A stretch of 64,000 bases of DNA from a phage. Under the pieces are notes generated by a model. That model made no database searches. It was not told where the DNA came from and worked only from the letters and a program-made list of their open reading frames with translations. Where the stretch lies: sequence record PZ445524.1; one strand, given 5' to 3'. A program made the position numbers and the translations under genes. Position 1 is the first letter of the stretch; every line of letters starts with the position of its first letter. This document shows, one piece after another, positions 25,467 through 45,571 of the stretch.

Positions 25467-25874
25467 TCACTCAATTTCAATTTTACTAAATATACAGAAT
25501 AAGATAGAACAGACTATATAAGCACCACACACAGATTGAACTAATACCATTCCAAAGAACCAAACAATATTATCAAACCATGTCTGTTTTACGTCGAAAG
25601 GACGTAAACTTACAGTAATATTATCACCTTTTTCTATTGAAGAATACATCTCCGGTGAAATATATTCGCTAAATCTATAACCGTCTTTGAGTTCATATAC
25701 AGCAATAAACGATAAACTAGACCCCTTTCCTTGAGTTCCTGTAAGGGTATTAACTACAGTAACATCATAATCTTTATAATGCATATAATCATTAATTGCG
25801 TAATAACCATATGCAATTACTATACATAAACAACATATCAATAAATTCAATCTTTTAATTATCAACTGTTTCAT
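25467..25874 (-). CDS. Membrane protein
   Basis: 135 aa with N-terminal and C-terminal hydrophobic helices. Confidence 0.5.
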   Translation of the reverse strand: MKQLIIKRLNLLICCLCIVIAYGYYAINDYMHYKDYDVTVVNTLTGTQGKGSSLSFIAVYELKDGYRFSEYISPEMYSSIEKGDNITVSLRPFDVKQTWFDNIVWFFGMVLVQSVCGAYIVCSILFCIFSKIEIE

Positions 25875-33307: not shown

Positions 33308-33525
33308 GTCACCTTTAAGCAGTATTCTTCTACATGCTGTTTACGACCTTTCTTATCAATAAAGGTATATTCAACGAATGTTCCAATGTAGTCTTTATCT
33401 ACATCATGTGGACTATTAATTGGACATTTAGTACGGCAAATGCGTTCCCATTGACGAATAATTACTGCCTTATTCTTTGGGTCATATGGATGTGGATAAT
33501 GTATATTCATAATAATGGTTCCCAA
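33298..33525 (-). CDS. Hypothetical small protein
   Basis: 75-aa ORF. Confidence 0.4.
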   Translation of the reverse strand: MGTIIMNIHYPHPYDPKNKAVIIRQWERICRTKCPINSPHDVDKDYIGTFVEYTFIDKKGRKQHVEEYCLKVTWL

Positions 33526-33974
33526 TCAACAATCACAATTTCTAATTTAGAGGAATATGTATCTAAAATCCCCTCAATAATATCCCAGTTCCCTTTACCT
33601 ATGCCTGCACCAATCCTAGGCATATAGATTGTAGGTTTAATCAGTTTATTTTCACCAAACTCATTTAATTCTAACATACAATTCATTAAAGCGGAATATT
33701 CAAAATTTGGCCCTGGTTGAAATTGAGTATAAAGATTAAAGCAGTAAGCTTTATGAGTCCTAAAGTATTTTTCATAGACTGAATAAGAACCAAGTTTAGT
33801 TACATCACCCCATTCAGTCTGTAATTTATCAGCTTCCAAAATTTTAGGGAAAGCTTTGGTTAATTGACCTGCGACTCCAGCTTTCATCGTATGAAAACAA
33901 TTGCATCCATGCGCAATATTTTTACCTTCAGTGAAAAGGGCGACAATATCGCCCTTGATATATTTTACAATCAT
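33507..33974 (-). CDS. Macro-domain-like protein (putative ADP-ribose binding or processing)
   Basis: 155 aa; N-terminal GDIVALFTEGKNIAHGCNCFHTMKAGVAGQL and later IGAGIGKG resemble the two Gly-rich macro-domain loops. Confidence 0.6.
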   Translation of the reverse strand: MIVKYIKGDIVALFTEGKNIAHGCNCFHTMKAGVAGQLTKAFPKILEADKLQTEWGDVTKLGSYSVYEKYFRTHKAYCFNLYTQFQPGPNFEYSALMNCMLELNEFGENKLIKPTIYMPRIGAGIGKGNWDIIEGILDTYSSKLEIVIVDWEPLL

Positions 33975-34318
33975 TTAGTACTCAATCCTCGATTATAAGA
34001 ATCTACCAAACGGTCAACCATTGAATGACAAGCGGCTTTATCTTTCTCCTCCGCAACTGAACATTCTAAGGTATTCCACTTTTTAGCATATCGTTTTAAT
34101 AATGTATCGTTTTTGTATCTGCTTGATTTATCTCTTTCTCCGTCTTTATATGCATATATTAATTTCTGTGCAAATTCAGCTTGGCATGCTTTATTTTTCC
34201 CACAATAATCTGCCGCAGTGCGGTTTACATATTCTCTAATTTCAGTATATGATGTATCTGCTGACGCAGAAGCAGAAAATGAAATTAATCCTATACATAA
34301 AACCAAAATTTTAGTCAT
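33971..34318 (-). CDS. Secreted small protein (vs position)
   Basis: 115 aa with signal peptide MTKILVLCIGLISFSASASA; lies immediately downstream of the SLT-like gene. Confidence 0.45.
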   Translation of the reverse strand: MTKILVLCIGLISFSASASADTSYTEIREYVNRTAADYCGKNKACQAEFAQKLIYAYKDGERDKSSRYKNDTLLKRYAKKWNTLECSVAEEKDKAACHSMVDRLVDSYNRGLSTK

Positions 34319-34856
34319 TTACTATTTCCAAAAGTTTATTATTTTTAAGGTAATTAGCCTTTTCTAGGACTTCAGAAGCATATTTAGAACCAGCTTTAAC
34401 ATTCCATCCCGAATTATAAGAGGATATTGCTTTTCTTATATCGCCCTTATGTATATTTAACCAATAAGAAAGTTCAATGTACGCCCAGGAAGCTGAATTG
34501 GATCGTTTATTCAACATTCTTTTTATTTCAGCATCGGTCATATTATAACCAAGTTCCTTAACTCTTGCTCGCATAGTAGGCAAATAATTTTGGAACATTC
34601 CGTAGGCGTGATGCTTTGGTTTAGATTTTAAATTAACTCCGCCAGAGCTTTCTTGCCATAAAATAGCAGCCATTATATGACCTAATCCGCTCTTGTGGAT
34701 ATTTTTGTGTGTTTTATATTTTCCATCCTTAGAAAATTGTTCCCCGAATTGATACGCGTAACGCATGTTATCGAGTTGGACATTACTGAAAGTATGCTCG
34801 GAGCTATGTGCCATCATTGAAATGGCCAATAGACCAGCGAGTAGTGCTTTTCTCAT
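34311..34856 (-). CDS. Secreted protein with lytic-transglycosylase-like motif
   Basis: 181 aa with signal peptide; ILWQESSGG resembles the SLT-domain E-S catalytic motif. Confidence 0.4.
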   Translation of the reverse strand: MRKALLAGLLAISMMAHSSEHTFSNVQLDNMRYAYQFGEQFSKDGKYKTHKNIHKSGLGHIMAAILWQESSGGVNLKSKPKHHAYGMFQNYLPTMRARVKELGYNMTDAEIKRMLNKRSNSASWAYIELSYWLNIHKGDIRKAISSYNSGWNVKAGSKYASEVLEKANYLKNNKLLEIVND

Positions 34857-34863
34857 GCTTACC

Positions 34864-35325
34864 TCATTGAGTTTTAATTACTGCTTTAGAAGCCTTTCCT
34901 GGTAAACGACGACTGTTGATAATTGCCATCCTACATTGAAGTGACGGGTCTTTGAACTTCGCGTTAGGTTTACAAACTGTAAATCCAAGCCAAAGATTTC
35001 CATCTGTGATTTCTAAACGTCCAGGACGATATTCAACCCCATCAATAAAATCCTCGTCAATGTCAGGACGCGGAGGCATACTCAGGAATTCATTAACTTC
35101 TAAAACATGGTCTTTTATTTTATGGAATAATTCAAAAACGTATGTCTCATCAATCTCCCGTTGAATTGCGCGATCAAGAAGATGCTGAGAATATTTTAGA
35201 TGAAACGATGAGACTCCTGCTGCTTTTGATGCCTCACGAATCTCATTGTTAATTTGACGAAACTCCGACTCAAAGTGACGACGAAGCTTATTTCGACGGA
35301 TAAAAACTTCTGTATTGATAGTCAT
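34864..35325 (-). CDS. regB: Endoribonuclease RegB
   Basis: 153 aa; matches T4 RegB as recalled (MTINTEVFIRRNKLRRHFE...). Confidence 0.9.
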   Translation of the reverse strand: MTINTEVFIRRNKLRRHFESEFRQINNEIREASKAAGVSSFHLKYSQHLLDRAIQREIDETYVFELFHKIKDHVLEVNEFLSMPPRPDIDEDFIDGVEYRPGRLEITDGNLWLGFTVCKPNAKFKDPSLQCRMAIINSRRLPGKASKAVIKTQ

Positions 35326-35384
35326 GTTATTCTCCTCTTAACTGATAGAAAAATTATACCACAGTCAAGAGGAAAAGTAAACAG

Positions 35385-35663
35385 TTATTCTTTAAATCTA
35401 ATCAATTTATTCATAGACTTTGAAACTTCTGCACGAACCTCATGTAGATTTTTGAGCTGTTCAAGACGCTGCGTATAGTAAGCAATTTCATCTTCTTCGA
35501 GACAGTCCTGTGAATCTTCTTTAAGATAACGTGCATAGTCCTGGAAAGCGTTACGAACTACTTCCTGGAAATCATCAAGACTTTGAATTTTCTTAGGAGC
35601 AGCAGATACACGACGAGGGGCAGTATAATACTCATAACCAAACCCTGCGCTTAATTGAGCCAT
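35385..35663 (-). CDS. Hypothetical protein
   Basis: Start moved to ATG 35661-35663 ([10 protein letters not shown]...), overlapping the upstream stop. Confidence 0.4.
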
Positions 35664-35959
35664 TAGTATTTTTCCTCTGGTTGGAACACTGCACGACAAG
35701 CCCACATACTGGCTTCTTTGAGTTTCGTTTTAGCAATAGTTAACTGATCGAGGCTTTCGGCGTAATTCTTCGCGAGTTCATCATCTTCACAGCTATCAAA
35801 TGCTTCCCAAAATTCATCGTATAAAGCATCAAAGATAAGTCCTAAACGAACTTCAGCGTCTTTAATAGCATTTACTTTACCGATTTTTTCGTCGGTGTGT
35901 GGCTTATAACCTTTAATATCTTCAATCATATTTGACTTCCTCACCAGTGCATAAATCAT
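35663..35959 (-). CDS. Hypothetical protein in the T4 vs.4 (Acb2) position
   Basis: Position-based only (vs.4 slot after regB). Track start is TTG; ATG at 35957-35959, or ATG at 35927-35929 which has a GAGGA SD. Confidence 0.4.
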
Positions 35960-45385: not shown

Positions 45386-45571
45386 CTATTCACCTTTAGA
45401 AATTTTATCCATAACAATAGCGATTAAACCAATTAAAAATGCTACTACAAGTGAAAACACATTTTCTGATGTAGTTAATAATCCGCATATAAATCCAACA
45501 AACATTGAAAAACTAAAAGCGGAAGCAGAAATTGCAATAGCAACATTTCGAATTAATTCACAACGTTTCAT
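45386..45571 (-). CDS. Small two-helix membrane protein (61 aa)
   Basis: ATG at 45569-45571 with GAGGAG SD (MKRCELIRNVAIAISASAFSF...); two hydrophobic segments. Confidence 0.45.
   Translation of the reverse strand: MKRCELIRNVAIAISASAFSFSMFVGFICGLLTTSENVFSLVVAFLIGLIAIVMDKISKGE

Follow-up and report, generated by a model that had tools for sequence, protein, structure and literature searches.

A predicted early periplasmic gene pair in T4-like phages: the transglycosylase-like protein Vs.1 and Vs, the annotated modifier of valyl-tRNA synthetase

The phage sequence PZ445524.1, analyzed here as one stretch of 64,000 nucleotides (the window), contains two adjacent open reading frames (ORFs) for proteins of 181 and 115 amino acids, which are the known T4 genes vs.1 and vs, respectively. 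The window is that of a T4-type Tequatrovirus, and the identification of both genes is a re-discovery. The best explanation of their features, which we regard as somewhat more probable than improbable, is that they form an early, translationally coupled periplasmic module consisting of the transglycosylase Vs.1 and its partner Vs, the latter annotated as a valyl-tRNA synthetase (ValRS) modifier. What the present analysis adds is the conserved coupling of vs.1 and vs and the export signature of Vs, and these contradict a long-propagated annotation. The similarity of vs.1 to soluble lytic transglycosylases is already known and has been in print since 2003–2006.

Both genes are on the minus strand. 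The vs.1 gene (34311..34856; phrog_600, E=2e-68) encodes the 181-residue precursor of a predicted Sec-exported lytic transglycosylase of the GH23/SLT type, and its product is 100% identical to T4 Vs.1. The vs gene (33971..34318; phrog_1256, E=2.7e-39) encodes the 115-residue precursor annotated as 'valyl-tRNA synthetase modifier', which is identical to T4 Vs at 114 of 115 positions, the sole change being the conservative K115R. By ORF coordinates, the stop of vs.1 and the start of vs share eight nucleotides (34311..34318, minus strand; ATGACTAA), forming a translational-coupling junction, and vs overlaps the downstream gene tk.4 by four nucleotides (ATGA). The DNA of the region is approximately 99% identical to that of many Tequatrovirus genomes. 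In T4 itself, where the two proteins have UniProt entries P13311 (Vs.1) and P13310 (Vs), the gene order regB-vs.1-vs-tk.4 and the overlaps are the same as in the window.

Vs.1 is predicted to be a GH23 lytic transglycosylase that is produced from the early stage of infection onward and exported to the periplasm, and in this prediction we have fair confidence. The segment ILWQESSGG (residues 65-73) was pointed out in an earlier note on this DNA as resembling the catalytic Glu-Ser motif of soluble lytic transglycosylases. A comparison with the SLT profile, the predicted fold, and the alignment of Glu69 all agree with that suggestion. In the Pfam SLT family (PF01464), Vs.1 scores 25.1 bits with the gathering cutoff of 21.3, its residues 61-154 aligning to positions 16-101 of the 117-position profile, and the same domain is precomputed on 17 of the 77 Vs.1 homologues. 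Weak PHROG matches of Vs.1 are to lytic tail, endolysin, and internal-virion SLT families. A search of PDB chains with the Vs.1 and Vs sequences (phmmer) and with profiles yielded no significant match, and a search of NCBIfam gave no match.

The AlphaFold2 model of Vs.1 (predicted local distance difference test score, pLDDT, 88.9; predicted template-modeling score 0.83) has a lysozyme-like alpha-helical fold. The top 29 Foldseek matches of this model in PDB are all GH23 proteins (probability 0.9-1.0, template-modeling score approximately 0.45-0.53, best E-value 7e-3). The matches include MltD, Slt, LtgA, Cj0843, goose lysozyme, a GH23 chitinase, the phi6 lysin, and the T7 core protein. Residues E69, G86, F88, Q89, N90, Y147, N148, G150, and Y159 are invariant in 32 Vs.1 sequences with identity down to 40%. 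The first of these is encoded at 34650..34652 (minus strand) and is the predicted catalytic acid/base in WQE69SS. It is also kept in nine more distant homologues from Acinetobacter, Aeromonas, Vi1-like, and Felix-O1-like phages, and in homologues from the same four groups the motifs E-S/T, G-x-[FYM]-Q-N, and S-Y-N-[SA]-G are retained. In hhalign comparisons, E69 falls on Glu37 of T7 gp16 and on Glu64 of Escherichia coli MltE (IE64S), both matches being weak (E approximately 0.17); we take these two glutamates to be the catalytic residues of their proteins. The fold and the motifs come directly from these comparisons; from the family, we infer the lytic transglycosylase chemistry, and a hydrolase activity, as in goose lysozyme, or a chitinase activity may be compatible with the sequence as well. 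The mature form is predicted to have approximately 163 residues, with a mass of 18.8 kDa, an isoelectric point of 9.7, and no cysteine.

By tblastn, the Vs.1 family is present in 2,046 phage records. An SLT match for vs.1 orthologues in six genomes was reported previously, with citation of still earlier PSI-BLAST results (Nolan et al., 2006; PMC1524935), and 'SLT domain-containing protein' is already the label of some GenBank vs.1 records. Other GenBank records name the vs.1 product 'endoribonuclease', 'site-specific RNA endonuclease', 'putative RegB protein', or 'C-type lysozyme/alpha-lactalbumin family protein', all of which are wrong; likewise, a wrong name propagated for vs is 'valyl-tRNA synthetase'. 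A literature search on the function of vs.1 and the localization of Vs turned up just three sources: the comparative-genomics paper of 2006, an expression paper of 2021, and a 2025 preprint on the HIDEN-SEQ transposon screen.

Signal peptides were scored with a custom heuristic that considers the charge of the n-region, an uncharged h-region, and small residues at positions -3 and -1; the first ~25 residues must hold all of these elements, with a positive n-region and an h-region that is 10-15 residues long. Under this heuristic, both proteins have Sec-type signals with predicted signal peptidase I cleavage sites. In Vs.1, the signal peptide comprises residues 1-18 (34803..34856, minus strand), with the n-, h-, and c-regions MRK / ALLAGLLAISMMA / AHS|S. 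In Vs, it comprises residues 1-20 (34259..34318, minus strand), with the regions MTK / ILVLCIGLISFSASA / SA|D. These results bear out the claim of the earlier note that two adjacent genes downstream of regB encode N-terminal signal peptides, and the conservation in homologues supports it further. The heuristic passes six of the 103 putative genes of the window, including that for the antiholin RI, which is experimentally exported and serves as a positive control. An adjacent passing pair is expected by chance approximately 0.3 times per window; therefore, the argument rests on conservation across phages and not on adjacency. Every one of the 31 Vs.1 homologues has a Sec-type N-terminus, as do all 17 full-length members of the Vs family, the latter with identity down to 19%. 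In both families, the property of the segment is kept while its sequence is poorly conserved. In the AlphaFold2 models, residues 1-20 lie outside the fold, with pLDDT of approximately 56 in Vs.1 and 48 in Vs.

To follow the association of the two genes, a local hidden Markov model (HMM) of Vs was applied to vs.1 loci from Tevenvirinae/Twarogvirinae, including those of Acinetobacter phages. In all ten of these loci a Vs ORF abuts or overlaps the 3' end of vs.1, and the pairing holds in loci where regB and tk.4 are not neighbors (L005, L006, and L010). On contigs whose Vs.1 is 40-53% identical to that of T4, a gene of the PF26829 (ValRS_modifier) family is located at or overlaps the vs.1 stop; in locus L004, this gene is interrupted by a scaffold gap. 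The pair is also observed in Acinetobacter phage Mokit (L010), Klebsiella phage Roth66, Enterobacter phage KMB20, Escherichia phage WG01, and Edwardsiella phage PEi20. At the junction, vs.1 and vs either meet as TAAATG or TAATG or overlap in the ATGA manner (L003, L005, L006, L010, L011, L012, L013, and L014), often with a GGTGGA-like Shine-Dalgarno sequence within the last vs.1 codons. By tblastn, Vs of the T4 type is found in 796 records and a second clade in approximately 411 more, which include every one of the 69 Acinetobacter-phage records that carry Vs.1.

Several additional features of these loci can be observed. In phages of the second clade (Acinetobacter, Klebsiella, and metagenomic), a third gene follows vs in the place occupied by tk.4 in T4 (L010, 2824-3249, and L011, 2363-2755, each with a 4-nucleotide overlap; L005, 4836-5246, with a 14-nucleotide overlap). 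Its product has 130-141 residues and its own signal peptide in L010 and L011, and the L005 gene encodes 136 residues. The antiholin gene (rI) is located 1-2 kb beyond the position of the third gene in Mokit, L004, and L006. Signal-peptide-bearing Vs.1-like SLT proteins with no Vs partner are encoded in the Felix-O1-like phage finno (Ounavirinae; L007, 2001-2549) and in Det7 (Ackermannviridae; L008, 1953-2570). Thus, an exported small SLT protein is far more widespread in large myoviruses than the pair. In Ounavirinae, the Vs.1-like gene adjoins rIIA/rIIB and is close to the spanins.

Such neighborhoods bring up the possibility that Vs.1 is an auxiliary endolysin that acts in end-of-cycle lysis or in the timing of lysis inhibition, the position of vs.1 between e and rI being a lysis neighborhood. 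The name 'putative lysin' given to homologues near spanins and rIIA/B in Felix-O1-like phages, the antiholin gene within 1-2 kb in distant T4-like loci, and the weak similarity to PHROG families of endolysins and lytic tail proteins point in this direction. However, Vs.1 is early and has its own Sec signal, so its activity would not be gated by a holin. Moreover, T4 relies on gpe and the holin T for lysis, vs.1 is non-essential in the reference T4 transposon library, and a lysis phenotype for vs.1 was not reported in the literature found. We therefore regard this role as very improbable.

The second protein of the pair has a more unusual profile. The Vs precursor has a mass of 13.0 kDa, and its predicted mature form has 95 residues, 11.0 kDa, and an isoelectric point of 8.9; the PF26829 domain is precomputed on all 13 Vs homologues. 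The AlphaFold2 model (pLDDT 84) is a four-helix bundle with helices at residues 22-39, 43-63, 70-86, and 91-112, and fold searches with this model gave no informative structural neighbor. An alignment of 18 Vs sequences, including distant members recovered from genomic context (identity down to 19%), contains only seven invariant columns: C39, C45, G60, C86, C97, L104, and G111. The cysteines flank the turns between helices 1 and 2 and between helices 3 and 4; thus, all four would be at the same end of the modeled bundle, where they most likely form two disulfides.

A HMMER scan of 1.84 billion representative proteins with the Vs profile retrieved only eight clusters, all of them phage Vs-like, and thus there is no cellular relative from which a function could be borrowed. 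In Pfam at E<=10, the 18 Vs members showed no recurrent family and no LprI or lysozyme-inhibitor family; the Pfam lipoprotein-site model was touched by two members alone, those with a lipobox. These belong to Karamvirus, whose Vs orthologues have a lipoprotein signal (ALSGC|K) in place of the signal peptidase I site, in two different sequences. For Karamvirus Vs with the lipobox in Enterobacter phage KMB20 (L012, 2049-2372) and for the protein P0096, the GenBank coding sequence starts 51 nucleotides late, hiding the signal. A related case is Edwardsiella phage PEi20 (L014, 2053-2397), where the 115-residue vs ORF has an intact signal peptide and the annotated coding sequence is a 54-residue fragment (2236-2400); the short version is an annotation error, not a pseudogene. 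Two other readings of the T4 N-terminus were considered and rejected: a lipoprotein signal (LVLC, residues 5-8), because Leu occupies its -1 position and homologues do not conserve the Cys, and an internal start that would remove the signal peptide, as there is no Met before residue 100.

Judged from these features, Vs, too, is probably exported. The cytoplasmic residence implied by the ValRS annotation disagrees with the Vs sequence, in which the signal peptide, the lipobox variant, and the invariant cysteines predict export. The purified tau peptide, as the ValRS-binding product is called, is reported to be of ~10 kDa, which is closer to the 11.0-kDa mature Vs than to the 13.0-kDa precursor and thus implies processing and, hence, export. 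Full-length Vs with an N-terminal His tag formed inclusion bodies in E. coli (PMC8076793), and this insolubility would fit, if loosely, with a tagged pre-protein.

Early expression of the two genes was also proposed in the earlier note, and several lines of data are in accord with it. Upstream of regB, a site resembling T4 early promoters (35353..35381, minus strand; GTTTAC-N17-TATAAT) matches the consensus at 10 of 12 positions and has a TG-extended -10 element. Given this match, it is the likely source of a regB-vs.1-vs-tk.4 transcript, and no terminator-like site was found on the minus strand between it and tk. The original T4 entry in GenBank (X04567) is titled '58.3 to 65.5 kb early region'. 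In the T4 dual-omics data, both vs and vs.1 are classed as early RNA / middle protein (PMC9697503, supplement), and thus both proteins are made. The ribosome-binding region of regB (35326-35345, minus strand) reads TAAGAGGAGAATAACATG and includes GGAG, the RegB cleavage motif. Its presence agrees with the autoregulation that is known for regB. The Shine-Dalgarno sequence of vs.1 (GAGGTAAGCATG) has no GGAG.

Phenotypic data are provided by the HIDEN-SEQ preprint, in which transposon insertions in T4 were counted in LB and in M9 glucose (10.1101/2025.11.20.689424). Both vs and vs.1 are non-essential in this library. Of all T4 genes, vs shows the strongest depletion when M9 glucose is compared with LB (26.6 in LB and 5.0 in M9, log2 fold change -2.19, adjusted p 0); a clean knockout confirms the effect, and the authors invoke ValRS. 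The counts for vs.1 are 22.6 and 11.9 (-0.87, adjusted p 0.155, raw p 0.0055). The flanking genes are flat, namely, vs.3 (652.1 and 626.2, -0.06, adjusted p 1.0), vs.4 (265.2 and 262.3, -0.02, adjusted p 1.0), and tk.4 (289.6 and 275.0, -0.07, adjusted p 1.0), and regB goes up (178.6 and 403.0, +1.17, adjusted p 0.797). Already after competition in LB, vs and vs.1 have ~10-fold fewer reads than their neighbors. On the natural isolate CFE299, from the same preprint, vs.1 is significantly depleted (-1.20, adjusted p 0.015) and vs changes in the same direction (-1.04, not significant). The common profile of vs and vs.1 fits a common function.

The same data bear on the possibility that Vs acts in the periplasm as an inhibitor or as an immunity protein, restraining Vs.1 until lysis, in the manner of the Spackle-gp5 pair or of Ivy/PliC-type inhibitors. 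A small, helical, predicted exported protein encoded directly after a muralytic gene and translationally coupled to it would suit such a role, and in M9 the phage suffers more from losing vs than from losing vs.1. However, an antidote predicts that loss of vs.1 is harmless, whereas vs.1 insertions are not neutral: in LB their depletion equals that of vs insertions, and on CFE299 it is stronger. For this reason, the toxin/antidote model was down-weighted. In addition, many phages carry Vs.1 without Vs, and a comparison of Vs with the known inhibitors Spackle, Ivy, PliC/MliC, and LprI detected no sequence or fold similarity. On balance, the inhibitor role appears improbable.

The most serious competitor of the periplasmic module is the annotated function. 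In that scenario, Vs is the cytoplasmic tau subunit that binds the host ValRS, its hydrophobic N-terminus directs little or no export, its place next to vs.1 is synteny by descent that means nothing for function, and Vs.1 is an independent exported lytic transglycosylase. The classical genetics and biochemistry (Neidhardt/Marchin) reportedly assign to the vs locus a ~10-kDa peptide that binds and stabilizes the cytoplasmic ValRS. The vs peptide is also said to rescue a temperature-sensitive valS host in vivo, which requires a cytoplasmic protein. This in vivo stabilization of ValRS is the main obstacle to the envelope model, and other observations weigh against that model as well. The M9-specific defect of the vs knockout fits a role in amino-acid metabolism or translation at least as well as a role in the envelope, since it is in minimal medium that amino-acid supply limits growth. 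The vs.1 phenotype could arise through a polar effect of the insertions on vs, to which vs.1 is translationally coupled. The four cysteines at one end of the modeled bundle could be a cytoplasmic Zn(Cys)4 site. The signal peptides of both proteins are predicted by a custom heuristic rather than by a trained predictor, and the Foldseek E-values of the Vs.1 model are modest, 7e-3 at best. Finally, approximately 40% of Vs.1-bearing phage records have no detectable Vs, among them Aeromonas phage 31, Det7, and Felix-O1-like phages, and the local HMM found no Vs at the vs.1-like loci of Aeromonas phage 31, Det7, and finno; thus, Vs is not needed for the function of Vs.1. The annotation itself is present in T4 RefSeq and in hundreds of genomes, and the classical literature that supports it is cited in PMC8076793.

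Other data are difficult to reconcile with a cytoplasmic Vs. The signal property is kept in every member of the family while the sequence drifts, which is a signature of selection for export, and the Karamvirus lipoprotein signal cannot deliver Vs to ValRS. The family is present in phages of Acinetobacter, Morganella, and Klebsiella, always joined to the exported SLT gene. Furthermore, the original GenBank record lists vs only as 'ORF 60.9' (1986 sequence), and the vs name was attached later. Together with the implied processing of the peptide, these points make the purely cytoplasmic scenario, in our estimate, rather unlikely. That Vs works with Vs.1 in the envelope is nearly an even matter, falling a little on the doubtful side. 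More tentative is the proposal in its full form, for which we see well under an even chance: the 'ValRS modifier' would be an exported, disulfide-stapled periplasmic partner of Vs.1 (lipid-anchored in some phages), the ValRS label would stem from assignment to the wrong ORF or from an association that is secondary or arises in extracts, and the M9 defect of vs mutants would be caused by the envelope function of the two-gene module.

The periplasmic module that we favor would operate as follows. Early transcription of vs.1 and vs would start at the promoter that precedes regB, and the translation of the two genes would be coupled. Vs.1 would be exported by the Sec pathway and, after removal of its signal peptide, would act in the periplasm as a small single-domain lytic transglycosylase of family 1 (GH23/SLT). 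Its Glu69 would protonate the glycosidic bond between N-acetylmuramic acid and N-acetylglucosamine, and the strand would be cut to leave a 1,6-anhydro-N-acetylmuramic acid end. Vs would be exported as well, as a four-helix bundle with its four invariant cysteines at one end, most likely in two disulfides, and would work alongside Vs.1 in the envelope, as its partner or regulator and not as an antidote. Starting early in infection, the module would modify the sacculus of the host cell, being dispensable in rich medium and adding fitness most clearly in minimal medium. The ValRS role of Vs would then fall outside this scheme, as a second activity, an association of the processed protein, or a mis-assignment of the ORF. 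Possible roles of the module include sacculus remodeling in slow-growing or natural hosts, an interplay with lysis or lysis inhibition, and superinfection. The earlier note had suggested superinfection exclusion, lysis timing, and envelope remodeling, and only the last, in its generic form, would follow from the modeled fold of Vs.1.

The purpose of the ValRS modification by T4 has been a question since the 1960s. Of the two export signals, that of Vs is the more surprising, as the gene has been annotated everywhere for ~40 years as a cytoplasmic modifier of ValRS. If the proposed scheme is true, T4-like phages have a widespread early periplasmic cell-wall module, and the annotation carried to more than 1,000 phage genomes, including those of Acinetobacter and Klebsiella phages, needs revisiting. 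If Vs is truly exported and works with Vs.1, the ValRS-based reading of the minimal-medium dependence of vs in the 2025 screen needs revisiting as well.

The genomic context of the pair is as follows. The upstream neighbor is the endoribonuclease gene regB (34864..35325, minus strand; Pfam REGB_T4, E=1.4e-68), whose product has one substitution relative to T4 RegB. The downstream neighbor, tk.4 (33507..33974, minus strand), encodes a macro-domain protein (Pfam Macro, 25 bits with the cutoff of 22); the T4 gene was named AdfM, anti-DarTG2 factor (bioRxiv 10.1101/2025.11.20.689424). Farther upstream, the product of vs.4 (35663-35959, minus strand) has the Pfam Acb2/Tad1 hairpin domain (70.5 bits with the cutoff of 27), which identifies it as the T4-type Acb2 cyclic-nucleotide sponge (anti-CBASS), still called hypothetical in many records. 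With acb2 upstream and adfM downstream, the vs.1-vs pair is thus embedded among counter-defense genes. Elsewhere in the window, three other minus-strand ORFs encode proteins with N-termini of the export type: a lipobox protein (1687-2067; LAGC; Pfam DUF5481), a 135-residue protein with a hydrophobic N-terminal anchor (25467-25874; phrog_2547), and a 61-residue protein (45386-45571; phrog_1692).

Known systems provide several points of comparison. T4 Spackle (gp61.3), a small, helical, signal-peptide-bearing early protein, is a periplasmic inhibitor of the gp5 tail lysozyme. It is what Vs might resemble, that is, a periplasmic small helical protein acting on a muralytic enzyme; however, the two proteins have no sequence or structural match, and the transposon data argue against a pure inhibitor role of Vs. 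Another example is Tgl of Kayvirus (Staphylococcus phage K), a phage enzyme with a transglycosylase motif that is exported by the host system and not released by a holin (PMC7150955). Tgl differs from Vs.1 in its Gram-positive host and in its protein family (IsaA/SceD-like).

The closest parallels are found among the lytic transglycosylases of family 1, such as MltE/EmtA and Slt70 of E. coli and MltD and Slt of Pseudomonas aeruginosa. Vs.1 has the same lysozyme-like helical fold in its model, the E-S, G-x-x-Q, and A/S-Y-N-x-G motifs, the C-terminal Tyr, and a periplasmic location, which is predicted for Vs.1. Unlike these enzymes, Vs.1 is a minimal single domain of ~160 residues that lacks a lipid anchor, a LysM domain, and a superhelical domain; its N-terminal helix and hairpin (residues 25-58) are phage-specific, and its sequence is only marginally similar to theirs, the Pfam score being 4 bits over the cutoff. 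Among phage proteins with SLT domains, some of them borne by virions, the N-terminal domain of T7 gp16 has WTE37SR, LGMMQ, and AYNQG in register with WQE69SS, YGMFQ, and SYNSG of Vs.1. Here the two proteins differ in their setting: gp16 is an internal virion protein for DNA ejection, whereas Vs.1 is free-standing, bears a signal peptide, and is made early in the infected cell.

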